From NCBI GenBank assembly GCA_963803145.1, contig CAWDLW010000051.1, positions 1-44,897 on the forward strand: DNA of 44,897 bases. The letters run 5' to 3'. The translations under genes and the position numbers were made by a program. Positions 8,206 through 35,873 of this stretch are shown here, piece by piece. Source of the stretch: Methanotrichaceae archaeon (GTDB lineage Archaea > Halobacteriota > Methanosarcinia > Methanotrichales > Methanotrichaceae). The notes beneath the pieces are model-generated. The model saw nothing but the letters and a program-made list of their open reading frames with translations, was not told where the DNA came from and searched no databases. The stretch's first letter is position 1. Every line of letters starts with the position of its first letter.

Positions 8206-8412
8206 TCAGCCACCGTGCACAATCCTTACGATTTTTAGCTCATCCTCTGCTCGAGCCATCTCAAGCTCAGAAACTATTTTACCGTTCTTCGCAACAATTA
8301 CCTCGACAGGATTTATATCCAGCAGCTTCAGAATATCCTCTATAACCATTGTTTCAATCGATATCTCTTTTGTAACGCCATCCTGTAATGTTATCTTCAT
8401 CTTATCAAACAT
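8206..8412 (-). CDS. MoaD/ThiS/SAMP-type sulfur carrier
   Basis: 68-aa beta-grasp-like sequence, VAKNG, C-terminal GG. Confidence 0.9.
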   Translation of the reverse strand: MFDKMKITLQDGVTKEISIETMVIEDILKLLDINPVEVIVAKNGKIVSELEMARAEDELKIVRIVHGG

Positions 8413-9397
8413 CTCTATGGGGAGTTATATCACATCCGGTACAGGGAAGACACATGGTCTTGGCCTCGTCGGCACGGAGGTCCTGTTCATCCAGCGCCTT
8501 CCTGACATACCGCGAAAGCTTAAGCAGCCTTTCTGCAGAGGGCCTTTGAACCTGGACTTCGCCTGCTCTCAAAGGATGTGGCGATATTGGCCTGAGGATT
8601 GGTATCACACCCATCTTTGTGAGCAGGTCTACGCCCGATGTGACGCTATTATCGCTCTCGCCGAGGCCGATGATGAAGTTCGATGCAACTTTGTTTCTGC
8701 CGAAAATCTTAACTGCTTTCGCTAGCGCTTCCAGGACAAAAGCCAGCGATAGTCCTGGGCAGTACAGCATAAAGATCCTAGGGTCCATTGTCTCAACGTT
8801 ATATTTTATCTCAGTGGCTCCGGCAGCGAAAAGCTCCTCTGATGAGGTATCCGTAGGATAAACCGAAACGCCAATCGGCAAGTCACATCGCTCACGTAGT
8901 GTCTTTACTATCTCTACAGCCTTTCTTACCTCATCCTCAGGCGACTCAGCCACACCACTTGTAAGAGAGATTGCCCTGAGATTTCCGGTCTGTTTTGCTT
9001 CTTCCACCATCATCAGGATCGACTCTGTGCTCTTGATTTCGCCATCGAGCTTTGGCACAGGGCAGAATTTGCAATCATAGACACATCTCCCGCTTATAGT
9101 CAGGTACGCCTGCTCAGGACAGTGGCTAAGCGCTGGCTCAAGCTTGCCTGTAACAATTATTTGTCCATCCCTGATAACTGCTACATCGGAACAGCAGCTT
9201 ACTACCTTCAGCGGTGAGTTCTTGTTTATAGATAGCCTCACCCTGTGGCCGCCGGATTTTATGAAGAATGACTCGAGACCTGCACCGGGGCCTGCGCTGG
9301 GAATTGTCGTCCTAGTAGCTTCTCTTAAAAGACCTTCGTCGATGTCGGCGCTGTCTATGCTTACCAGCAACGCCTTGATCTCAGCATTCATCTCCAT
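8405..9397 (-). CDS. Radical SAM protein (biotin synthase-related, methanogen type)
   Basis: CVYDCKFC cluster motif; HCP and C-terminal CxxCxxC. Confidence 0.9.
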   Translation of the reverse strand: MEMNAEIKALLVSIDSADIDEGLLREATRTTIPSAGPGAGLESFFIKSGGHRVRLSINKNSPLKVVSCCSDVAVIRDGQIIVTGKLEPALSHCPEQAYLTISGRCVYDCKFCPVPKLDGEIKSTESILMMVEEAKQTGNLRAISLTSGVAESPEDEVRKAVEIVKTLRERCDLPIGVSVYPTDTSSEELFAAGATEIKYNVETMDPRIFMLYCPGLSLAFVLEALAKAVKIFGRNKVASNFIIGLGESDNSVTSGVDLLTKMGVIPILRPISPHPLRAGEVQVQRPSAERLLKLSRYVRKALDEQDLRADEAKTMCLPCTGCDITPHRDV

Positions 9398-9559: not shown

Positions 9560-9575
9560 GTTCACGATTGTTAAC
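9560..9575 (-). promoter_or_regulatory. Palindromic operator GTTCACGATTGTTAAC
   Basis: Starts 28 bp downstream of the minus-strand TTATATA box that drives the radical SAM operon; matches sites at 27043, 30888 and 33589. Confidence 0.7.
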
Positions 9576-11669: not shown

Positions 11670-11740
11670 GCCGGGGTGACTGACCGGTTAAGTGCGCGGC
11701 TGCAGACCGCGAGAATTGGGTTCGACTCCCAATCCCGGCC
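11670..11740 (+). tRNA. tRNA-Cys(GCA), atypical (C73 discriminator)
   Basis: Hand-folded cloverleaf: acceptor GCCGGGG/TCCCGGC, anticodon stem CGCGG/CCGCG with CT-GCA-GA loop, T stem TTGGG/CCCAA with TTCGACT loop; no encoded CCA. Confidence 0.9.
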
Positions 11741-11742
11741 TT

Positions 11743-13188
11743 ATGAGGATTCATAATACTCTGAGTGGCGATAAAGAGCCACTACAGACAATTCACAAAG
11801 GTCGTATCAATCTATTTGTTTGCGGTCCGACCGTTTATGACGATTCCCATATCGGCCATGCCAGGACCTACATCGCCTTTGATGTAGTTGCTCGCTATTT
11901 CAAGTACAAAGGCTTCAGCGTTTTCTACCTGCAAAACATAACCGATGTGGATGATAAGATCATCAATAGAGCCGCTGAGCTGCACGTTTCACCCTTAACG
12001 CTGGCACGCAAATTCGAGCGAAGATACCTGGAGGATATACGTGCCCTTGGAGTAACTAACGTCAACCTTTATGCCAGGGCAACTGAGCATATCCCTGAGA
12101 TCATCAGCCAGATAGAAAGGCTGGTGGAAAAAGGATTTGCATATGAGACGAAGACTGGCGTTTACTTTGACGAGTCCAAATTCGACGATTTCGGGAAGTT
12201 GTCGCATCAAACCACAGAGGACCTGGAGAAACACAGGATAGAGCCGGACCTGAGCAAGAGGAACCCTGGAGACTTCTCCCTCTGGAAGAAACGGCAAGAT
12301 GGAGAAGAAGTTATCTGGGACTCGCCCTGGAGCGAAGGCCGCCCCGGGTGGCACATAGAGGACACGGCCATTACCGAGACCTACTTTGGCCCTCAGTACG
12401 ATATCCACGGTGGAGCAATGGACCTGATATTCCCCCATCATGAGGCTGAGATTGCACAAATGGAGGCGGCCTCTGGAAAAAAACCGTTGGTTAGATACTG
12501 GATGCATACCGGCTTTCTAAACGTAAAGGGCGAAAAGATGTCCAAATCGCTGGGAAACTTCATCACAATCAGAGAGATGCTTCAACGGTACGATGCCGAA
12601 TCATTCAGGTTTTTCGTTCTTTCTGCACATTACCGAAGTTCTATTGATTTCTCCGAAGCAGCTCTCGAGCAGTCAAGCAAAAGCTTGGCGAGGATTCGTC
12701 AGCTTGCTAGGATCATAGACGAGCAAATCGGGATGAATAAAGAGATTAATGAAGAGAGTATCCCACAATCATCGGAAACTGAAGAGATCGATGCTAGTGT
12801 GGTTGAGGCAAAAACAAAATTTTTGGAGCATATGGATAACGATTTCAATACACCTTATGCTCTTCGTGTTATCTTCGAGCTTGTAAGAGATGTGAATCGG
12901 CGCATAAGCGAGAAGACGATTTCTAGAAAGGCGCTTTTCGATGTTAAGGCTTTTCTGGAAGAGGCTGGAGAAATCCTCGGCTTACGCTTCTCTGGGGCAG
13001 AGAATGAGGCTATGGGAGCTGCAGAGGATTTGACTGTAAACCTGATTGAGCTCTTGATCGATATACGGCAGAAGCTCCGTGAGAAAAAGGACTGGCAGCT
13101 TGCGGATGAGATACGAGCTAGGATGAATGAAGTGAACATCGTCCTAGAGGATACTAAGACCGGAGGTGGAGGATACACGATTAAATGA
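11743..13188 (+). CDS. cysS: Cysteinyl-tRNA synthetase
   Basis: CGPTVYD, HIGH, GRPGWHIE, FPHHEAE, KMSKS and anticodon-binding C-terminus; true start ATG 11743 (the ORF-track extension runs through the tRNA). Confidence 0.97.
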   Translation: MRIHNTLSGDKEPLQTIHKGRINLFVCGPTVYDDSHIGHARTYIAFDVVARYFKYKGFSVFYLQNITDVDDKIINRAAELHVSPLTLARKFERRYLEDIRALGVTNVNLYARATEHIPEIISQIERLVEKGFAYETKTGVYFDESKFDDFGKLSHQTTEDLEKHRIEPDLSKRNPGDFSLWKKRQDGEEVIWDSPWSEGRPGWHIEDTAITETYFGPQYDIHGGAMDLIFPHHEAEIAQMEAASGKKPLVRYWMHTGFLNVKGEKMSKSLGNFITIREMLQRYDAESFRFFVLSAHYRSSIDFSEAALEQSSKSLARIRQLARIIDEQIGMNKEINEESIPQSSETEEIDASVVEAKTKFLEHMDNDFNTPYALRVIFELVRDVNRRISEKTISRKALFDVKAFLEEAGEILGLRFSGAENEAMGAAEDLTVNLIELLIDIRQKLREKKDWQLADEIRARMNEVNIVLEDTKTGGGGYTIK

Positions 13189-20914: not shown

Positions 20915-21081
20915 TTGATCCTTCAACCCATTTATCTCCTTGAATTGAGGTTGACGATGAAAGTACATTATACCCCAGGTTTGGGCAATTGGCAAAGTTA
21001 GATTGAATAGAGTTACGAAGGGATTAGACGCTACCGTGCTGGTAAAGCTCGAATCCTTCAATACACAAAAACCGCGTAAAT

Positions 21082-21834
21082 ATGTTTGTTTGCGGTCCAA
21101 CGGTCTACGACGACTCTCACATAGGCCATGCAAGAACCTATATCGCCTTCGATACGGTAGCACGCTATCTCAAGTATAAGGGATTCAGCGTTTTTTATCT
21201 TCAGAATATAACAGATGTGGATGATAAGATCGTCAATAGAGCCGCTGAGCTTAGCGTCTCTCCTACAGACCTTGCACAGAAATATGAGCGAAGATACCTT
21301 AAGGACATGCATGCGCTCGGCGTAGAGAACGTTAACCTTTATGCATGCGCCACAGATCACATACCTGAAATCATAGATCAGATAAAGGCGCTAGTAGAAA
21401 AGGGATTTGCATACGAGACAGAGACGGGCGTTTATTTCGACGAGTCTAAGCTGGAGGATTTCGGAAAGCTATCGCACCAGACAGCCGAAGACCTGGAGCG
21501 GCATAGAATAGAGCCCGACCCCACAAAGAGAAATCCTGTCGATATTCTCTCTCTGGAAAAACGGGAGGACAGCGTTGATGTTACCTGGGATTCGCCCTGG
21601 GGCAGAGGGCGTCCAGGCTGGCATATAGAAGATACAGCAATCACAGAGACCTATTTCGGCCATCAATACGATATCCACGGCGGCGCTATGGATCTGATTT
21701 TTCCACATCATGAAGCTGAGATCGCTCAGATGGAATCAGCTTCAGGGAAAAAGCCGATGGTGCGATACTGGATGCATACAGGATTTCTGAGGGATATGGG
21801 AATCATCCTGGAAGATTCGAAAATCAAAAGCTGA
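21082..21834 (+). pseudogene. cysS: Truncated second cysteinyl-tRNA synthetase copy
   Basis: Very similar to the 11743 copy up to WMHTGFL, then jumps to the terminal ILED motif (KMSKS and most of the anticodon domain deleted); N-terminus eroded; local compensated frameshift at GDFSLWK. Confidence 0.85.
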
Positions 21835-22032: not shown

Positions 22033-22312
22033 ATGAGGGATCGCCTTTGCACCACTCGAGGATGAGAGTCCTCACCTGAAGATAGAGCGGCTACCGCCGT
22101 CGGCAAAGCTTGTTTTGAAGGTGCTTGAATCAGGCAGCCTTCTGACGCAGAAGGATATAATAAGTAAGACATATCTTCCTGCCAGAACCGTTAGATATGC
22201 GCTAAGCAGACTTAAGGAGGAGAATCTCCTGGAAGAGCGCTTCTACTTCCAAGATGCGCGCCAGAGCCTCTATGGGCTGAATGCTCAGACCGAGGAGGTG
22301 GTAATCGGATAA
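22033..22312 (+). CDS. wHTH transcription regulator (LPPSAKLV...TQK...RTVRYAL...DARQ family), split across frames near the start
   Basis: HTH frame is open from 22037, but its first ATG/GTG/TTG (22115) is inside the conserved domain; ATG 22033 opens an out-of-frame 10-aa ORF MRDRLCTTRG. Confidence 0.75.
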
Positions 22313-25605: not shown

Positions 25606-26979
25606 CTAATTTACATTTAATCCATATTTTTCGGCGATCTCGATGAACGATTCGGAAGTGTATTTTATCTGGTCCCACGTGAGGCCGTAGGTATTCAGCT
25701 TCCAGGTGCGAGTGGCTCCTGCAAACTCACCAGCGATTCCTCGATCCTTCAGCTCATCACTGAAGAAGAAACCTCGTCTCTTATGTGTTTTAGCAACTAC
25801 ATCGAAGCTGCCGGTTGTATCCACCTTTGTGAGGGTATGCTTCCTTGGCCACTCGCTCAGGACCTTGGAGCCCTGAATTCTCAGGAACTGCTCAAGGAAG
25901 TAGTTTGATTTGCTGACCTCCTCATCCCAGTGCTTTGTCCTTTCCAGCACCGTTGGGAAGGATGCAATCATGGAGATCAATGTGCCTCCCATGAGCGTGC
26001 AGCCCATGTTCTCCACTTCCTTGATGCCGAACTTGCGCTTTGTCAGATCTCCAACCATCTGGGTTGTTCTGAAGATCTTCGAGGCCCATTCGTCTGTTGT
26101 TGCAAGCACTCCCGAAGGCGCAACTGATGCCATGCTTTTATGTGCCGATCCGACTATGAAATCGGCGCCTATTTTTTTACCATCCACTGGCCTTACGCCG
26201 ACCGCATAGGCTCCATTGCAGAGAAACGGCACATCATATTGCTTTGCGACCTGGGCAATGCCGCAGACGTCATGCTCATTTGCAAACTGATAATCGTAGT
26301 AATCGATCATTATGAGCTTGGGAAGGCTGCCTGTCTCCTTATGCACATTCTCGATCTTCTCTGCAACTGCATCAGCTGTTATAATATTGCGATTATTCAA
26401 AGGGACCTCCATAACTCTGCCGCCCGCAACCTCGACCGCCAGGAACTCAGTATAGTGAGCCAGCGATGAGACTATCACGCTGTCGCCCTTCTCAACTAGC
26501 GATTGAGTGACTGCCTGAAAGCCGCGCCGGGCACCTGGAACAACCCGTGCCTGATCCATGTTGACAAATTTGGCGAGCTCCTGGTGAAACTCCTCAATTG
26601 GCGGCCTGGTTATCTTGTCCAGACGGAAGGGCTTTCTGCAGTAATCGCAGGTGGAGTAGCCATCACCATAGGAGATTATGGCCTTGCGCGCCTCAGGCGT
26701 GAGCCTGCCAGCAGCCTGGATAGGATGGATATTTATGAACTCCTCCTCACGAGTTCTTGGATCAAGCTTGCCGCCGATTTTATTGCAGGATGGCTTTCCG
26801 TCGCCATTCTCAATGCCATCAATGGCTATTTTTATCCTCGAAATTGTGCTCGAGAGCCGCTCCTGCTCAGCTTCGCTAAGCCCGGTTGGCAGCGATTGCC
26901 TGAAGATCTCTCTTAGATCCTCTAGCCCGAAGAGCGCCTCATAGGTTTTCTGAATTTGCAGTCTCTTTTTCAACTCCAA
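25606..26979 (-). CDS. pscS: Sep-tRNA:Cys-tRNA synthase with N-terminal helical extension
   Basis: [27 protein letters not shown] lysine and LGCT-like MGCT; TTG start at 26979 with GGAGG RBS. Confidence 0.93.
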
Positions 26980-27042
26980 TTTACGGCCTCCAAAGCCCCA
27001 ATAGGCATCGAATATTTTATTAGCAGATGCAACAGGGGCTGA

Positions 27043-27086
27043 GTTCACGGTTGTGAACATCAGATAACAATTGTTATGTATATAAA
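27043..27086 (-). promoter_or_regulatory. pscS-metY-metX promoter: TATA box plus tandem palindromes
   Basis: TTTATATA on the minus strand, then ATAACAATTGTTAT (27064-27077) and GTTCACGGTTGTGAAC (27043-27058). Confidence 0.75.
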
Positions 27087-27687
27087 TATTTCGACTTTGG
27101 GTTCTGTAAAGTTGGCGGTTGTTTAGCGATTCCAAAGAATCTGTCAAAACTCGGTTGTTAGAAGGAGATTCAAACACCCTCAAATTTTTATTGATCCATA
27201 TTCAATTCATATTTAACCCTCGAAAGTTTTGGTATTCTAAGACTTGAAATAAGTTTAATAAAGAACTTCTACTGTTGGTGCATTCTTTATCGTTCATTTC
27301 GAATGTTAAATCCAACCTTTACAAATTGTGCATATTTACCATTTTATAGTAGCAAGGTATTTATATCCACGATGAATATATGCGATTTAATTGACATATA
27401 ACATACATTATGGCGACAAAGGCAGAGAAAAATAAACTAAATTAGAAATGAAGGAGTCCTCAGCTCCGACATTCCCAAGCAAAGCAAGCACAACCCCTAG
27501 CATTACCGGAGGTTATCAATGATGATAAGTAACTTCAAGCAATATAAACCTTTTGCATTGAAAGAGACGCTAGTAAAGCATACAAATAAAGTACTCCATC
27601 GCTTTGAGTTGAACTATTCTCAAACCCGTTTTTACAATGATCTGGTATCGCCTTTGCGAACAAGTTTCTCCTATAAGGAGGGTCAAA

Positions 27688-27774
27688 ATGATCGAAGAAT
27701 TTATTTTCGCGCTCTTGGCAGCGTTAATACTCGATCTAATAAGGCGCATGTCAAGAAATATCGTAAAACTATAG
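27688..27774 (+). CDS. 28-aa hydrophobic peptide, type I toxin-like (MIEEFIFALLAALILDLIRRMSRNIVKL)
   Basis: Hand-translated; AAGGAGGGT RBS; one hydrophobic helix plus basic tail; hairpin downstream. Confidence 0.6.
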   Translation: MIEEFIFALLAALILDLIRRMSRNIVKL

Positions 27775-27785
27775 CAAAGGAGCAA

Positions 27786-27827
27786 GCGGGGCAGGTATGG
27801 GCATACTTTTGCCCCGCAAGCCTTTTT
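27786..27827. terminator. GC-rich hairpin with T tract between convergent small genes
   Basis: GCGGGGCA...TGCCCCGC followed by AAGCCTTTTT. Confidence 0.6.
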
Positions 27828-27904
27828 ATTTCCCTTTATTCTCCTCCACAATCGCAAGATTTGATAACAGCTAAAGGGATTAGTATGTATAGATATAGTA
27901 CTAT

Positions 27905-28048
27905 TCAAGCCTTTTGGTCTATCCAAAATCGAAGGGCTTGCTCGATGGCTATTTTCATGTTACCTTTCTTCATTCCAAGCTTTCTAGCTACGGCTTCGCG
28001 AAATTCAGCATCTAACTTGTCATCTATTACTAAGCTGATTTGCCCCAT
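27905..28048 (-). CDS. 47-aa ribbon-helix-helix protein
   Basis: Hand-translated MGQISLVIDDKLDAEFREAVARKLGMKKGNMKIAIEQALRFWIDQKA; divergent from the transposase. Confidence 0.8.
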   Translation of the reverse strand: MGQISLVIDDKLDAEFREAVARKLGMKKGNMKIAIEQALRFWIDQKA

Positions 28049-28067
28049 CAATATCTGTAATGCTAGT

Positions 28068-28141
28068 TATCTAGATATAAAGTTATCGCTTTATCTAGAT
28101 AACCATAAACTATATATCTAGATAACTAGTTATCTAGATAT
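28068..28141. promoter_or_regulatory. Four TATCTAGATA palindromes (likely RHH operators)
   Basis: Copies at 28068, 28092, 28115 and 28131; the last two form a perfect 28-bp palindrome (28114-28141). Confidence 0.75.
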
Positions 28142-28142
28142 C

Positions 28143-29282
28143 ATGGGAAAGGAGAATTTGATTGCGATGAAAGACGTTAGAGAGGAAAAAGGTAAACAAA
28201 TTGTAGATCAAGATCACATATTCCAAGTCACTACTACCTCTTTCGTTGTAAAATCGCAATCAAGCCCTAGATTCTATAATGTCGATAAGACTTCTATAGG
28301 CTGGAAATGCAATTGCCCCGATCATAAGTTCAGAGGTTCAAAGTGCAAACATATTTGGGCAGCGCAATTATGCTCAGGAATTAAAGAGCAGGCAAAGCGA
28401 AACATTGTATTAGAGCCAGTGAAAATTTCAGATTGCCCCTATTGCCATTCGCAGAACATCAAAAAGTATGGTGCTAGACATAACAAAGATGGGGATCTTC
28501 AGAGGTTTGCCTGTAAGGATTGTGGCAGAACATTCAGCATTAACATAGGCTTTGAGCATATGAAGCACAATCCAAAAGCAATAACAGCAGCCATGCAACT
28601 TTATTTCAGTGGCGAGTCCCTACGAAGCACACAGAGATCATTGAAACTTATAGGTGTCGAAGTGTCTCATCAGACCGTTGCCAACTGGATTGCAAAGTAT
28701 ACCAGAATCATGAAGGCATACGTGGACAATATCAAGCCTGATGTAAGCTCAACTTGGCGAGCTGATGAGGTATTCCTCAAAATAAAGGGGGATCTCAAAT
28801 ATCTGTTTGCCTTGATGGACGACGAAACCCGCTACTGGATAGCTCAAGAGGTCGCAGATACCAAAGATAAACACGATGCAAGAGCCCTTTTCAGAGAGAG
28901 CAGAGAGATTGCAGGCAAAAGACCTGAGACACTAATAACCGATGGACTCCAATCATACCATGATGCCTTCAGAAAGGAATTCGCTACAAGCCGTGCCCCT
29001 CAGTCTCAACATGTTAATGCAATTCGTCTTCAAGGATCGAAAAACAATAACAAAATGGAAAGAATAAATGGCGAAATTCGAGATCGAGAGAAGACCATGA
29101 GAGGCTTAAAGACTAAAACCACCCCAATCTTACAAGGGATGCAGATCTATCATAATTACATAAGACCTCATGAGGCCCTTGATGGGAAAACACCATCTGA
29201 AGCATGTGGTATTGAGATCAGGGGAGATAATAAATGGATTACATTGATTCAGAACGCGAGTCAGAAAGTGAAAGTTAAATAG
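28143..29282 (+). CDS. IS6/IS240-like DDE transposase with N-terminal SWIM finger and Zn ribbon
   Basis: CNCPD..CKH (SWIM), CPYC..CKDC, HTH, WRADE, ITDG, NNKMER and HNYIRPH motifs. Confidence 0.92.
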   Translation: MGKENLIAMKDVREEKGKQIVDQDHIFQVTTTSFVVKSQSSPRFYNVDKTSIGWKCNCPDHKFRGSKCKHIWAAQLCSGIKEQAKRNIVLEPVKISDCPYCHSQNIKKYGARHNKDGDLQRFACKDCGRTFSINIGFEHMKHNPKAITAAMQLYFSGESLRSTQRSLKLIGVEVSHQTVANWIAKYTRIMKAYVDNIKPDVSSTWRADEVFLKIKGDLKYLFALMDDETRYWIAQEVADTKDKHDARALFRESREIAGKRPETLITDGLQSYHDAFRKEFATSRAPQSQHVNAIRLQGSKNNNKMERINGEIRDREKTMRGLKTKTTPILQGMQIYHNYIRPHEALDGKTPSEACGIEIRGDNKWITLIQNASQKVKVK

Positions 29283-29807: not shown

Positions 29808-30857
29808 AAAATCACCTCATAACTTTTAACAAAAATTGATTAGTTCTAACTAAAAGCGCTATAAAAACGAGCCTAAAGCATTTATATTCTCCCTTTAAAA
29901 AGCCTGAGTTCTTTAATATTTAAAAATCGGATTATTGATAATTTATAAACAATTAAATCTTATGCGTGATAGAATTTTCTTTCCTTTGTGAGAATATTAA
30001 ATATATGCACATCATTAAGTTTAAATCCTGGCATGCTTTTAATTTATCTTAGCAACTAGATTCAACGCGTTTTCTTTTCTTCACGACAGAAGAGAAGATG
30101 CTGAGAGGATAGTTGACTACGTAAATCGAGGTGAGATATTTGACACGAGAAATCGTGCACGCAGTGAAAATTGTATTGCACCTCATACTGCTGCTGATGA
30201 CTGTATTAGGCTATTAGCAGTAGCGTAGCCCGAAATTGCCAAGCATTCGCCACATTCACTAGAATGCTTGGCATAAGTACGGCGCGAGTTCTTTTTTAGA
30301 AGATTGTAATAATGAGAATGGCAGACTCAAAGAGCCCGCCATTCAAGGATATTAAGTCGAGCCAACCACAGCCAGACTTCAATCCTCCTACCTATGATAC
30401 CTAGCGCCTCACCACGCACGACCGTGAAAGAGGCCATTCTTTCTAAAGCTTGTAGTTTCGCAGACCACGACAAGAGCCACGCAGTGATGAAACTCTTGCG
30501 TAGCCCGCTACCGATGCCACATATCGGATATGCTACGCCTTAGAAATTGGACATCGATAGGTAATACTTCTTTTGAAGGAAGTAATATTTAGCTTTTCTC
30601 TCTTTAATTCGCTTTTAGAGCGCCTTTTTAAACTTTCTTGATTAGCAATCGATCGATTTATATCTTTTCTCCCTAAATGCGCGATAATCATAACATATTA
30701 AACATATTTATTCCATTAGCTGGCATTTAGCAACATGAGGTTGTTACGATTCCCTTATCCGCCGACCATCATGCAACAATACCAACAACCGATTTTTGAC
30801 ACCAAAAGATTCAGACCAAAACAACCTAAGACTTTACAGAACCTCTGGCCAAAACCG

Positions 30858-30903
30858 TTATATCCGTAACAATTGTTACATTACCCAGTTAACAATTGTG
30901 AAT
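30858..30903 (+). promoter_or_regulatory. Antiporter promoter: TATA box plus tandem palindromes
   Basis: TTATAT at 30858, GTAACAATTGTTAC (30866-30879), GTTAACAATTGTGAAT (30888-30903). Confidence 0.75.
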
Positions 30904-30909
30904 AAAGGT

Positions 30910-32213
30910 ATGTGGATGCTGGGACGCCAGAATGGCCTGCTATGGATCATAACATTAGCGCTAGCAGGATTTGCAGCTGCACAAGGCTACCCTGTGCTTT
31001 TTCAGCTATGGCTTCTTCTCGCATCAGCTCTGTTTTTCGGCAATCTTGCAAGACGCATGGGCCAGCCTGCAGTGCTTGGCGAGATACTGGCAGGTATAAT
31101 TCTTGGGCCGACTGTACTCGGCTGGCTGGCACCAGATGTGCAGCCCTGGCTGTTCCCTAAAAACCAAATTGTCCAGACGATAGCGTATATTGGGCTGATA
31201 CTGTTTGTATTCACCGCCGGCCTTGAGGTCAATCTGGCCTACGTAAGACGCCGAAGACGAAGTGCTCTGCTTACCAGCATCTCAGGCGTAATTCTGCCAT
31301 TTGCACTGGGATTTGGTATGGTCACTCTGCTGCCTTGGCTATGGAGCATTCCGTCTGGCGATCTGAGAATCTTTGCGCTCTTCATGGGAACAGCTCTCTC
31401 CATATCAGCCCTTCCGGTCATAGCCAGAATCCCCTCATGGATCTCGATCTCATGAAGATGGAGCTGGGCTCAATGATAATAAGTGCCGCAACGATCGATG
31501 ATATCATCGGGTGGTCTCTCTTCGCCCTTATCTTGAGCATCTTGAATACCGGAATGGGCCTGGCGCTTAACCTGAGCCTGACTGTAGGAGCCCTTGCTCT
31601 GACAATCTACTTAATACATTTAGAAGCTAGAAATGATGCTATATTGCATTCTCGTCATATTGGAAGCCTCATAGATATAGTGGCGATATCCATGCTGGCC
31701 ATATCATTTGTAGCTGAGGCCATAGGTACTCACGGCATCGTATGTGCCTTCCTGTCAGGAGTTATCCTCTCTCAGAGGCACGTTAGACGAGACCTTATCC
31801 TGAAAAATATACGTCCTCCGGCCATGGATATACTGGTGCCGATTTATTTTGCCTCCATAGGGCTTAAAGCAAACTTTGTAACCAACGTCGATCTGACCAT
31901 TGTTATTCTAATTTTCATAGTGGCCTGTGCAGGCAAGATTATTGGAGCAAGCTCTGGAGCAATGGCTGGCGGTATTGCTAGAAAAGAAGCATTAGCAATC
32001 GGGTTCGGAATGAACGCCAGAGGGGCAATGGAAATCGCTCTAGCATCCGCTGCACTAGACTACGGCTTAATCGACCAGCGTATCTTTGTGGCCTTGGTAA
32101 TCATGGCTCTCGCAACATCGATGATTAGTGGCTCGATGATCCAGCATTTCATATCTAAGCCGCTTAGTGAAGGATATTCAGGAATCAGGCCATCCTCCTC
32201 GATCCATGATTGA
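30910..32213 (+). pseudogene. CPA2 cation:proton antiporter, frameshifted near 31430
   Basis: QPAVLGEILAGIILGP...ISALPVIARI continues as LMDL...AATIDD...PIYFASIG...ARGAME in another frame; break at ATCCCCTCATG. Confidence 0.85.
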
Positions 32214-32339: not shown

Positions 32340-32834
32340 TCACAAGCGATTGTCTCCTGAGCCGCGAACATCGATTCTTCTGCGCTCAGAGAGTCCCTGC
32401 AGCTCCTCATATATCACAGAAAGAGCTTTATCTTGAGCTTCCAGGTGTTCAAGAACGATGCGAATCTCCTCTTCCGCCTTTTCATTTACCATGCAATTAT
32501 GGCACATCCTGACCCTATCTCGCTCGTCCTCCCTGTTTTGGCTTATCATGATAATTGAGGCTGCATAAGCGGCTTCAAGGGATAGAACCAGGTTCATTAA
32601 AACGAAAGGGTACGGATCCCAGCGATAAAACCATCCCGAAACATTCAGCGCTGCCCATGCACCGAATATAATAGTTTGCCATATGATGAAATTCCAGGAA
32701 CCAACCGTTCTGGCAATCCAATCGGCGGCTCTTTGTTTATAGGTAATATGCTCGCCGCAAATCTCATCGACATCGCAAACAGAAGGATGCTCATGCTTAT
32801 ACGGCTCAGGAAACTCAAGCTTATTCAAAGGCAT
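32340..32834 (-). CDS. DUF1003 family membrane protein
   Basis: ADWIARTVGSW, WDPYPFVLMNL and IIMISQNR motifs. Confidence 0.9.
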   Translation of the reverse strand: MPLNKLEFPEPYKHEHPSVCDVDEICGEHITYKQRAADWIARTVGSWNFIIWQTIIFGAWAALNVSGWFYRWDPYPFVLMNLVLSLEAAYAASIIMISQNREDERDRVRMCHNCMVNEKAEEEIRIVLEHLEAQDKALSVIYEELQGLSERRRIDVRGSGDNRL

Positions 32835-32958
32835 AAATTAATAGACCGGACGAGTGTTTTATAAATACTTTTTCGAGACTCATAAGAGTAAACACAAAAT
32901 CTAAAAAAGGGTTAACGATCTTCGCGTACTGGTCCAGATCCGGCGAGAATTCTATATC

Positions 32959-33561
32959 TCATACTTGTGTTGCCTTAAAGGAGGCTGTATTCAGCCCATA
33001 CAGACTCTGACGTGCATCTTGGAAGTAAAAGCACTCCTTGATCACGCGCTCATCTTTAAGCCTGCTTAAGGCATACCGGACAGTTCTCGGCGGAAGGTCT
33101 GTCTTGCTTATGAGATCCTTCTGCGTCAGAGGACCATCAGATGTCAGGACATTGAAGACAAGCCGTGCGGAAGGCGGCAGATACTCTACAACATCCAGAT
33201 CAGGCGGACCTACTTCATCAGAATAAGCTGAAGAAGCACTAGGATATGTGCTTACTTTGCCAGAGTATGGAGAAACTGCCCATGCGCCTTCCTTGCTCTC
33301 CGAACGGGAGCTGCCCTTGCCGAGGTAAGAATAGCCAAGACCGTACACTTCTATACTGGAAGATGGCGAGATCTGACCGGGACAGACGCATATCTGGGAA
33401 GTGCAGGAACCATCTGGGGTTTTGCCGCAGCAATCCATCCCTTTTGAACCGCCACAACACCCGGACATGCAAGCACAATTCTTTCCAGTGGGCATTGAGA
33501 GAGCGGGGGCTACAATAAGGCTGAGGATTGCTAACGTCACGAGCAGTTTTATAATCTTCAT
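32959..33561 (-). CDS. Signal peptide, Cys-rich segment and C-terminal wHTH regulator (paralog of 22033)
   Basis: GGAGGT RBS before ATG 33561; MKIIKLLVTLAILSLIVAPALS; 9 Cys in 32 aa; C-terminal LPPSARLV..TQKD..RTVRYALSRLK..FYFQDARQSLYGLN. Confidence 0.8.
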   Translation of the reverse strand: MKIIKLLVTLAILSLIVAPALSMPTGKNCACMSGCCGGSKGMDCCGKTPDGSCTSQICVCPGQISPSSSIEVYGLGYSYLGKGSSRSESKEGAWAVSPYSGKVSTYPSASSAYSDEVGPPDLDVVEYLPPSARLVFNVLTSDGPLTQKDLISKTDLPPRTVRYALSRLKDERVIKECFYFQDARQSLYGLNTASFKATQV

Positions 33562-33584
33562 CCCACTTACCTCCAGTTCCCTCT

Positions 33585-33608
33585 TGGAGTTCACAATTGT
33601 GAACTCCA
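33585..33608 (-). promoter_or_regulatory. Perfect 24-bp palindromic operator TGGAGTTCACAATTGTGAACTCCA
   Basis: Core begins 31 bp downstream of the minus-strand TTATATA box of the HTH-fusion gene. Confidence 0.8.
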
Positions 33609-33932
33609 TAGAAAGGAGGAGTTATCAATATATAAAAAGCTATCTGAATATACGATGAGTTATCGCCTAAACTTGGACAATATATATTTGGCCGCCCTGG
33701 AACGCCTAATTATAGCGGCCCTGAAAAGCAATCATGTGCAAGCATATTGACATTTTCATTGGACTTTCACCACATATATGCATATTTATTTGGAATATAT
33801 TTACTAGTAATCACAATTAGCTGCGCAAACTACCACCGACATTTGCCTAAACCCAAATCGTCATATGGGATTGAAGTTTATCTTCTTGATGTAAGCTGTG
33901 CGCCAGTCCACTGGATGATAGGTGGGAATCGA

Positions 33933-34448
33933 ATGAAGAAATTAGCTATAATATCAACAATCCTGCTTTTTGCAGGAATCGGATTGACTCTTGGAGAAAC
34001 TGGACATTGCGGCTGCTCAGGCAGTTCAACATGTCTGCAAGCCACATGTGCACCGAACTGCGGAGGCTCGTGTGTTCAGGGTGCCAATATTGCATCCCCA
34101 TGCGGAACCAAATGCCCCAGCAATGGGTGTGGGTCTGCAGGTGGCTGCCTTGCTTGCTGTGGAGCTAACTGCGCTGGCTGCTGCGGAAACTCGGCTACTC
34201 ATGGCACTCCTGCTGCATCAACATGCGGAGCCAATTGTCCCATTGCAGGGTGTGGGGCGGCCGGCGGCTGTCAGACTTGCTGCGGAGCTAACTGTCCTGC
34301 CTGCTGTGGAGGCTTAAATACTCAGAGTACACCTGCCGCATCGGCATGCGGAAATCACTGTCCTACGGGAAACTGTACAGCGGTTGGCGGCTGCCAGGCT
34401 TGCTGTGGAACTAACTGTGCTGCCTGCTGTGGTGTAGCCAATAGTTAA
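33933..34448 (+). CDS. Secreted Cys-rich repeat protein (metallothionein-like)
   Basis: Signal peptide; 33 Cys in 171 aa; three 9-Cys repeats; GGTGGGA RBS before ATG 33933. Confidence 0.85.
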   Translation: MKKLAIISTILLFAGIGLTLGETGHCGCSGSSTCLQATCAPNCGGSCVQGANIASPCGTKCPSNGCGSAGGCLACCGANCAGCCGNSATHGTPAASTCGANCPIAGCGAAGGCQTCCGANCPACCGGLNTQSTPAASACGNHCPTGNCTAVGGCQACCGTNCAACCGVANS

Positions 34449-34744
34449 GCAACTCCTGAAGGTAGGTATACCTACCTCACTAATTTTTATCCCGGTCTGA
34501 TTTGAAGCTTGAGTTTCACCAATTTACACCAAAAGGCTATGCATATGCTACATCAATACATTATCCTGATCTAAATCGCTTGCCTATACCCATTCTGTGC
34601 GGATAACACAGTTAAATGACTGCTGCTCGACTGAAATGGGCATCCCACAGTAAAGCTAGTACAAAATTTTATCTGCACATCTGTCACCGATTTATGGAAA
34701 ACATAATTATAACTATTTAGAGAAATATGATATGATGGAGTGAT

Positions 34745-34906
34745 ATGAGGATCATCGATCCAGTCTTCAAAATGGAATGCAACGTTAGGTATGCCTCATT
34801 CAGATCAGAATATGAAGGCAATATCTACTGCTTCTGCAGCCTCGCCTGTAAGAAAATGTTCGATAAAGATCCAAAGAAACATCAGGATTTTGGTAAGAGC
34901 GTATGA
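34745..34906 (+). CDS. YHS/TRASH domain protein (53 aa)
   Basis: Hand-translated MRIIDPVFKMEC...SEYEGNIYCFCSLACKKMFDKDPKK; GGAGTGA RBS; ATGA overlap with the next gene. Confidence 0.85.
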   Translation: MRIIDPVFKMECNVRYASFRSEYEGNIYCFCSLACKKMFDKDPKKHQDFGKSV

Positions 34907-35873
34907 AAATAGTTATTGCAGATCCCATATTTCTCACTGAAGAGTACAGGAAAAGGCTGGAAGCACTAGGCGAGCTGGAGATTTATGATAGCACGCCTGC
35001 ATCTCAAGAGGAGTTTCTTGAGAGGATAAAGGATGCTGAGATAGTAATAGTAGGAAGATATGGCTTTACAGCCGATGCTTTTCACTATGCCCCAAAGCTG
35101 AAAATGATTTCCCTGTGGCAGACGGGCTACGATAATGTCGATCTTGATGTGGCGACCGAACAGGGTGTGGTCGTCTCAAATGTCCCCAATTACGCCTTTG
35201 ACTCAGTAGCTGAGTTTGTCTCTTCGCCCTTGCACTTGATCTGCTTAGGAAGGTCCGTATTGCCGATGCGAGGCTACACAAAGGAAAATTCGATTGGAGA
35301 TGCTATGTTGGCAGACAGCTCATGGGCAAGACTATAGGAGTGCTCGGAACAGGCGATATAGGAAAGAGGGTTATACAGATCGCTCATGGGTTCAACATGA
35401 ATGTATTATCCACCACTGCTCACCCAAGCCCTGAGAAGGAAAAGGCTCTAGGAGTGAAGTTCGGAAACCTGGATACACTGCTTAGAGAGAGCGATATCGT
35501 AACCTTGCATGTGCCTCTAACGCCTGAGACAGAGCACATGATAGGTGAACGAGAGCTGGCCAAAATGAAGCCCACTGCCATCCTGATCAACACTGCAAGA
35601 GGCAAGATAGTGGATGAAGCTGCGTTAATAGATGCTCTCAGGTCGAGGAGGATCGCCGGAGCGGGCTTGGATGTCTTTGAGGAGGAACCGCTTCCAATGA
35701 ATAGCCCACTACTAGAGCTGGACAATGTCCTGCTGACACCCCATATAGCATTCCTCTCAGAGGAGTCGATAGACGAGTGCACATATATCTGCATCGAGAA
35801 CATAGAGATGTTTTTGAAGGGCAAGCCCCAGAATGTGGTAAACCCCTCTGTGCGCAGGGTAAATGTAAAGTAA
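34903..35873 (+). pseudogene. D-isomer 2-hydroxyacid dehydrogenase (glycerate/phosphoglycerate DH-like), frameshifted near 35220
   Basis: TGYDNVD..SVAEFV continues as FALALDLLRK..GKTIGVLGTGDIG..INTARG..TPHIA after an extra TC (GTC TC TTC). Confidence 0.88.

Follow-up and report, generated by a model that had tools for sequence, protein, structure and literature searches.

How can a transcription regulator reach DNA if its own N-terminus marks it for export? The question is raised by one gene in a 44,897-nucleotide stretch of a Methanotrichaceae contig (positions 1 to 44,897 of GenBank CAWDLW010000051.1, assembly GCA_963803145.1), a stretch called the window here. On the minus strand, a single unbroken open reading frame (ORF) of 216 amino acids (32959..33609) reads, in order, MKIIKLLVTLAILSLIVAPALS, NCACMSGCCGGSKGMDCCGKTPDGSCTSQICVC with nine cysteines, a serine-rich linker and a C-terminal winged helix-turn-helix (wHTH). 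DNA-binding domains are as a rule cytoplasmic, and a regulator that carries one downstream of a conserved Sec-type signal peptide goes against this rule. Its hosts are acetate-using methanogens; among their relatives, Methanothrix accounts for much methane production and has very high needs for iron–sulfur (Fe-S) and thiol chemistry. On the comparisons given below, the identity, family and autoregulation of this regulator are very probably as we describe them, and a switch based on its export is possible, if doubtful.

A wHTH regulator with an export-type N-terminus

The initial annotation had described an uninterrupted ORF with a hydrophobic N-terminus ending in APALS, nine cysteines, a serine-rich linker and a wHTH; all of these parts can be read in the ORF, and its coordinates were correct to within one base. 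The regulator itself most likely starts at M17 (ATG 33561..33559), which would give a protein of 200 residues, because GGAGGT lies 7 nt 5′ of this ATG, homologs begin at MK(I/L)I.. and, in other loci, the stretch between the upstream palindrome (see below) and the ATG shifts frame or holds stops. A leaderless start at the upstream ATG 33609 was rejected, its frame and openness not being conserved in other loci. A conserved internal start, yielding a form that lacks the signal peptide, was rejected as well, no Met after the predicted cleavage site or in the Cys region being conserved. Residues are numbered from M17 throughout, except for the HTH_24 match, which refers to the 216-residue ORF.

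The order of parts is kept across the family. A word-indexed search with the regulator returned 230 homologous proteins at E ≤ 1e-3, with 88–98% coverage and down to ~50% identity, all with the parts in the same order; among the 120 matches listed, lengths range from 178 to 271 residues, query coverage from 82 to 100%, and the source, where named, is Methanothrix or Methanotrichaceae. A match to residues 1–125 turned up in 26 of the 105 Methanotrichaceae genomes, spread over 5 of 16 genera and including 13 of the 64 high-quality genomes; none of the 29 genome matches has an internal stop. Contigs of a related strain, taken from public runs, span 32707..34500 with 70 substitutions and no gaps. 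The gene is real and under selection, and its identity is well supported.

The same data bear on the suggestion, made at first, that the ORF is a recent accidental fusion. It could be an artefact of a lost stop, of an assembly indel or of a chance joining of genes for a secreted protein and a regulator, and the assembly does hold split genes, namely an antiporter (~31431) and a 2-hydroxyacid dehydrogenase (34903-35873). Against this stand the identical order of parts in the 230 homologs, the genome matches without stops and the gap-free independent contig, which refute a recent fusion and leave artefact a negligible probability. Neither separate genes for the two parts in relatives nor an indel, the outcomes that the initial annotation had considered telling, was found.

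Beyond these full-length proteins, a profile search run without filters against 1.84 billion representatives gave 1265 wHTH relatives, and the N-terminal part was covered by only ~10 clusters at 50% identity (E ≤ 1e-30). The remaining relatives are wHTH-only proteins of 80–120 residues or NAD-kinase fusions. Judged by eye, the same wHTH subfamily (LPPSAK..TQK..LP.RTVRYAL..DARQ) stands at the C-terminus of NAD-kinase-like proteins of 330–355 residues (P0160, P0198, P0199, P0221 and P0232). A second full-length copy in the same genome (L002, G000 C16:98594-99193) shares 54% identity with the regulator; it has ATT in place of the start ATG found in the others, lacks a good operator, stands beside another secreted-protein gene, and may be decaying or under different control.

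The C-terminal domain matches Pfam HTH_24 (PF13412) at residues 151–191 (E 1.4e-6; 28.2 bits against a gathering cut-off of 21.9). Its last 70 residues are 70% identical to the frame 22082..22291(+), in agreement with the close likeness to a paralog at 22 kb that had been noticed initially, and the recognition helix RTVRYAL is identical in the signal-peptide form and the paralog. For AlphaFold2 (AF2) modelling we used an alignment of 90 sequences, comprising the window protein and 89 of the 119 other listed hits, from which hits with clearly longer or shorter called ends had been left out by hand. The model has a helix at residues 3–16, a confidence score (pLDDT) below 50 over residues 22–116 and a wHTH at 121–195 with pLDDT ~90. 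Foldseek matches were limited to MarR-type DNA-binding cores (best E 8.7e-4; 64–87 columns), the best including the DNA-binding domains of NMB1585 and MepR–DNA, and a sequence search of the PDB gave weak MarR and Z-alpha matches (E ~0.04).

The protein resembles MarR/ArsR-type regulators in its three-helix bundle with a β-hairpin wing and in a palindromic operator that overlaps its own promoter, but only a core of ~75 residues is present: the MarR dimerisation helices are absent from the AF2 model, and the signal-peptide helix is the sole flanking helix. Assignment to the MarR family was rejected, with MarR_2 at 17.8 bits against a cut-off of 27 and the dimerisation helices missing, and so was ArsR/SmtB, the name that one source gives to some homologs (HTH_5, 13.4 bits against 22; HTH_20, 12.3 against 27). 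MsvR (NCBIfam NF053755, equivalog at ≥220 bits) was likewise set aside, the paralog scoring 20.4 bits and the full-length protein having no NCBIfam match.

A cysteine peculiar to the signal-peptide form occupies position 177 or 179 in 86 of 90 sequences (the two positions reading R,C in 54, C,Y in 26 and C,C in 4). Both positions lie on the first wing strand, on the face opposite the core residues F178 and F180, and wHTH-only paralogs read ERFYF at this strand. This conservation suggests that the N-terminal Cys cluster and the wing may act together.

The N-terminal segment was assessed by charge and hydrophobicity counts, on which the topology assignment rests, in 107 homologs from the list of 120; in the other 13 the parsing rule recognised no CxC motif or no uncharged stretch, and these were left out. 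The n-region has a net charge of +1 or +2 in 100 of 107, the 15 residues after the hydrophobic stretch have a net charge of zero or below in 91 of 107, and a second transmembrane (TM)-like window (19-residue Kyte–Doolittle mean >1.6) occurs in 0 of 107. The hydrophobic core runs to ~12–13 residues before a proline, or ~10 in some homologs; P19 is invariant and the tails follow AP[AV][LF]S or similar (for example APALS, APVLS and VPAFS). This n/h/c layout would be that of a cleavable Sec signal peptide, and because of the positive-inside rule (basic n-region, neutral or acidic flank) the remaining chain is predicted to go outside. The paradox raised in the initial annotation, a DNA-binding domain that should be exported, is therefore real at the level of sequence.

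Between signal peptide and linker, a 32-residue stretch carries the motifs CxC, CC, CC and CxC. Across 90 homologs, seven Cys columns are conserved (29, 31, 36, 44, 45, 58 and 60), and 6–13 cysteines precede a GPPD motif. Serine makes up 26% of linker residues. Searches of Pfam, NCBIfam and the ESM Atlas (residues 1–120) gave no family or usable match for the Cys-rich part, which is predicted to be disordered and metallothionein-like, with putative metal binding.

Operators, a probable cysteine regulon and a putatively frameshifted paralog

The regulator gene is preceded by the perfect 22-bp palindrome GGAGTTCACAATTGTGAACTCC (operator O1; Table 1), which has no other match in the window at ≤3 mismatches and was matched in 0 of 100 shuffles. 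O1 lies 25 nt 5′ of the ATG, between the TATA-like box and the Shine–Dalgarno (SD) sequence, the usual archaeal layout for autorepression. A match of at least 12/16 to GTTMACAATTGTKAAC stands 35–57 nt 5′ of the ATG in 21 of 22 full-length loci, and the sole locus without an operator has a wrongly called start. A perfect operator over the gene's start region had been reported initially; the palindrome is indeed perfect and covers codons 1–8 of the longest ORF, but with the start at M17 it belongs to the promoter and 5′ untranslated region.

Related operators with the consensus GTTMAC-AATT-GTKAAC point to a wider regulon. Six sites in the 4.13-Mb genome match the operator at ≥14/16 positions: four in the 45-kb window, one before cysK-cysE (contig C10:19588, L113) and one inside a coding sequence. 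In the window, the SepCysS gene (25606-27183, minus strand; PRK09331, E 2.6e-186) heads an operon with metY, encoding homocysteine synthase, and metX. It is an accessory copy, SepCysS2, with an N-terminal extension of ~70–130 residues (loci L083-L112). Reading the results table, we count it at ≥73% identity in about 29 of the 105 genomes; a SepCysS paralog of ~40% identity occurs in 103 of the 105 Methanotrichaceae genomes. Operators stand 5′ of SepCysS2 in 23 of 27 loci, mostly as pairs 20–21 bp apart, against 0 of 3 housekeeping loci and a background of 0.06 sites per 700 nt.

Of the 26 genomes that encode the signal-peptide regulator, 17 have SepCysS2 too, a co-occurrence count that includes related, non-independent genomes. 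The two genes lie ≤25 kb apart on one contig in five genomes from three genera and are adjacent in one. From these placements the operator appears to mark a cysteine/methionine regulon comprising SepCysS2-metY-metX, cysK-cysE and the antiporter gene, to which the radical-SAM gene with its single upstream site (Table 1) can be added. In the literature searched, which lay outside subscription journals, we found no account of how cysteine synthesis is regulated in methanogens, the tRNA-dependent route included. The locus offers an operator, a regulon and two forms of the regulator, both apparently made in dependence on cysteine.

The second form is the wHTH-only paralog at 22 kb, whose start and DNA-binding domain lie in different frames (Table 1). 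No in-frame ATG, GTG or TTG precedes helix 1, and the related contig has no indel at the site. We collected 56 copies from records of Methanoperedens, Methanothrix and Methanocellaceae (including L003 and L031-L082). All 56 have, in frame 0, an SD sequence (GGTGA/GGAGA), an ATG and ..AGG (G/A)AT CGN YTT TGC, followed by a stop 0–7 codons after TGC; the frame-0 peptide ends ..R(D/N)(R/L)(L/F)C and the wHTH follows in frame +1. The codon before the site varies between CGT, CGA and CGC, changes that are synonymous in frame 0 and give Val, Asp or Ala in +1, which implies that ribosomes reach the site in frame 0. Two codons before this one, within the SD-like element, G alternates with A; this exchange is silent in +1 but swaps Asp and Asn in frame 0, and would argue against such reading. 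The predicted frameshift product is free of cysteine in 55 of 56 copies.

The arrangement recalls the +1 cassette of prfB (release factor RF2), with its SD-like AGGGGG, 3-nt spacer and CUU UGA C. The paralog likewise has a short frame-0 ORF, a slippery CUU U (UUU U in three copies), an SD-like AGG(G/A)AUC 2 nt 5′ and its functional domain in +1, and the whole set (SD start, short ORF, YUU U, SD-like element, +1 domain) recurs in 56 of 56 copies. It differs from prfB in having a sense codon, UGC (Cys), where prfB has a stop in the A site, in its archaeal host and in encoding a transcription regulator. Sulfur genes surround the paralog (metY, metX and a sulfonate-type ABC system), and a full-length gene for cysteinyl-tRNA synthetase (CysRS), cysS, lies directly 5′ in 10 of the 56 copies. 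The paralog is likely, on this pattern, to be a programmed +1 frameshift that senses Cys-tRNA. The consulted part of a review (PMC8211752) records no proven cellular +1 frameshift in archaea, and the literature searched yielded none at a Cys codon there.

In the window itself, a truncated CysRS gene (21061-21801, plus strand), aligning to residues 39–285 of a relative, stands directly 5′ of the paralog; a full-length cysS is located at 11692-13188 (plus strand).

Export as a possible switch and the alternatives

Part of the protein probably acts in the cytoplasm, because its DNA-reading surface has stayed similar to the one in the cytoplasmic paralogs and its own promoter carries palindromes. 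Given cytoplasmic action and a conserved signal peptide, the signal peptide would most simply be an exit route that removes regulator. We propose that, in the cytoplasm, the C-terminal domain recognises operators of the form GTTCAC-N4-GTGAAC, including O1 of its own gene, and that signal peptide and Cys module set the amount of regulator remaining in the cell; judging from its conservation, the related inverted repeat in the promoter of the divergent neighbour gene (Table 1) would be a further target. Chains targeted to and threaded through the membrane would be lost as regulators, and chains completed and folded in the cytoplasm would bind DNA. The input would be the decoding of the 7–9 Cys codons as the signal peptide emerges, a ligand of the Cys cluster before export, or both. 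Cysteine supply or a cluster ligand is the likeliest signal because the paralog seems to use a Cys codon as checkpoint and because codons 29–60 would be translated as the signal peptide emerges from the ribosome. Cysteine supply is a more likely input than Cu or redox state, since the operator appears to mark cysteine/methionine genes and the paralog probably shifts at a Cys codon. We hold this as the best explanation as a whole, tentatively and with a probability somewhat short of even.

Several points weigh against it. We know of no motor for post-translational export in archaea, and a kinetic competition between export and folding is speculative. The paralog alone could occupy O1 and O2, and tandem SepCysS2 operators are also found in genomes without the signal-peptide form. 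That a repressor is present when cysteine is plentiful would be one of several coherent stories for the sign of regulation. The N-terminal Cys codons are TGC in 126 of 191 cases (66%) against a genome background of 62%, so the share matches background, provides no codon-level mark of programmed slowness and is uninformative.

The protein might instead be a secreted or surface protein whose wHTH has an extracellular role, on DNA, on another polymer in the sheath space or on a protein, and the operators would then be bound only by the paralog. Its N-terminus reads plainly as an export signal, the gene is paired with one for a secreted Cys-rich protein, surface proteins often have disordered linkers rich in serine, and the paralog could serve every operator in the genome, SepCysS2 operators being present also where the regulator is missing. 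But the DNA-reading helix and wing are near-identical to those of cytoplasmic paralogs, in 21 of 22 loci the promoter of the gene itself bears a perfect or near-perfect palindrome, and the literature searched holds no precedent for an extracellular winged helix; we consider this reading unlikely. About as improbable, in our judgement, is an uncleaved anchor that holds Cys cluster and wHTH on the cytoplasmic face, where a metal, an Fe-S cluster or a persulfide would gate dimerisation or DNA binding at the membrane. Seven conserved cysteines (CxC, CC) and an exposed wing cysteine in 86 of 90 sequences suggest that these elements work together in one compartment, a domain without MarR-type dimerisation helices must have its palindrome-bound copies paired by another element, and the regulon handles sulfur amino acids. 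Yet the positive-inside rule places the C-terminal part outside, a hydrophobic core of ~12–13 residues (some ~10) is short for a stable span, and AF2 shows no fold for the Cys region.

A further alternative ignores export altogether and takes the Cys stretch as an in-frame leader, on which ribosomes short of Cys-tRNA would stall so that little regulator is made; the likeness to a signal peptide would be incidental. The paralog family's apparent use of a Cys codon as translational checkpoint and the 6–13 Cys codons ahead of the DNA-binding domain would fit such a leader, which would not, however, need the n/h/c layout, P19 and the A-x-S tail that are conserved family-wide, and particular Cys positions are conserved beyond mere Cys content. 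We regard it as quite improbable, more so than either the secreted or the anchored protein.

The proposed export switch has partial parallels among known systems. In ToxR, CadC and TcpP, an N-terminal cytoplasmic DNA-binding domain is followed by a TM helix and an outside sensor. The regulator resembles them in combining a DNA-binding domain, a hydrophobic membrane segment and a putative sensor in one polypeptide, but its hydrophobic segment stands at the N-terminus, with no TM helix between the other two parts, so that sensor and DNA-binding domain are expected on the same side of the membrane; with the required intervening helix in 0 of 107 homologs, membership of the ToxR/CadC type was rejected. 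The anti-sigma factor FlgM leaves the cell through the flagellar apparatus, and SecM and MifM are arrest peptides; in all three, as proposed here, output depends on the occurrence or the rate of a polypeptide's export or translation, and to our knowledge none of them combines DNA binding with a Sec signal peptide. Nrf1 (NFE2L1) carries an N-terminal signal anchor, its DNA-binding part is first in the lumen of the endoplasmic reticulum (ER) and its activity needs topological repartitioning. This eukaryotic factor, the subject of PMC12285602, is the nearest analogy in logic, differing in that it is a bZIP protein that needs ER retrotranslocation and proteolysis and has no homology to the regulator. 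No description of this regulator family, or of a prokaryotic regulator bearing a Sec signal, was found in the literature searched.

Taken together with the paralog, the export switch would allow two-way ribosomal sensing of cysteine within one regulator family of Methanotrichaceae, an idea that we consider rather improbable. The Cys-free paralog would be made only if the ribosome fails to decode UGC and slips +1, and in the signal-peptide form the speed of Cys decoding or capture by the cluster would decide between Sec export (loss) and folding (active repressor). If true, no earlier case would exist of a prokaryotic transcription factor that Sec export switches, nor, in archaea, of a cellular sensor based on +1 frameshifting. 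Export as a switch would be a new regulatory principle for prokaryotes, and there is a real chance that the regulator stands for one.

Neighbouring genes and features of the window

The divergently transcribed neighbour gene, 371 nt from the regulator, has a counterpart in 16 of 19 loci (12 by BLASTP, 4 by eye); it is missing in L009 and L019, and the second genome copy stands beside a different secreted protein. It has 11 homologs only and matches no Pfam or NCBIfam family; this paired secreted Cys-rich protein is itself a lineage-specific product. A shared origin of its N-terminus with that of the regulator was rejected (hhalign of 90 against 16 sequences, probability 3%). The second inverted repeat, in the neighbour promoter, follows a conserved block, TTGCC.AAA.CCAAATCGTCATATG. 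It is present in 12 of 12 loci shown, weakly in the window and in L005, and its half-sites are those of the main operator, everted and set at another spacing.

Table 1 Features of the regulator locus, the paralog and related operators in the window (aa, amino acids; strand "." for palindromic sites)
Feature	Position	Strand	Basis or remark
Regulator coding sequence from the probable start, 200 aa plus stop	32959..33561	-	ORF, homolog starts, SD
Signal-peptide-like segment, aa 1-22 (MKIIK n-region; LLVTLAILSLIV h-region; APALS c-region)	33496..33561	-	charge and hydrophobicity counts, alignment
Cys-rich segment, aa 29-60, 9 Cys	33382..33477	-	conserved Cys columns
Ser/Gly/Tyr-rich linker, aa 61-117, conserved motif YDPGYSY(L/F)GKGSSR	33211..33381	-	two alignments
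Winged helix-turn-helix, aa 118-200, wing-strand Cys (C177 here)	32962..33210	-	HTH_24, AF2, structural matches
Shine–Dalgarno GGAGGT	33569..33574	-	GGAGG before ATG conserved in loci shown
TATA-like box TTTTTATATATT (gene strand)	33624..33640	-	read from sequence; conserved in intergenic alignment
Operator O1, core GTTCAC-AATT-GTGAAC	33586..33607	.	perfect palindrome; kept across loci
Second inverted repeat, degenerate copy (GTGAAC-N7/8-GTTCA in relatives)	33891..33911	+	just 5′ of neighbour SD
Divergent neighbour, signal peptide and Cys-rich repeats, 171 aa, 33 Cys	33933..34448	+	ORF; locus comparison
wHTH-only paralog: ATG 22033, frame 0 stops after 10 codons, wHTH in +1	22033..22312	+	
Putative shift site CTT TGC	22045..22050	+	
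Two tandem operators beside TATA-like box, head of SepCysS2-metY-metX	27043..27078	.	genes on minus strand
Two tandem operators directly 5′ of ATG 30910, CPA2-type antiporter gene	30865..30903	.	beside TATA-like box
Single operator (15/16) beside TATA-like box, 164 nt 5′ of radical-SAM gene (8405..9397, -)	9560..9575	.	

The antiporter gene (30796-32213) is split in the assembly, and contigs from two public runs lack 2 bases at 31431, which points to an indel of the assembly or of the strain; the 2-hydroxyacid dehydrogenase gene is the other split gene of this region. A DDE transposase gene with an IS240-type domain (28143-29282, plus strand) lies between the SepCysS operon and the antiporter gene, and public contigs break or join at ~27100-29218.

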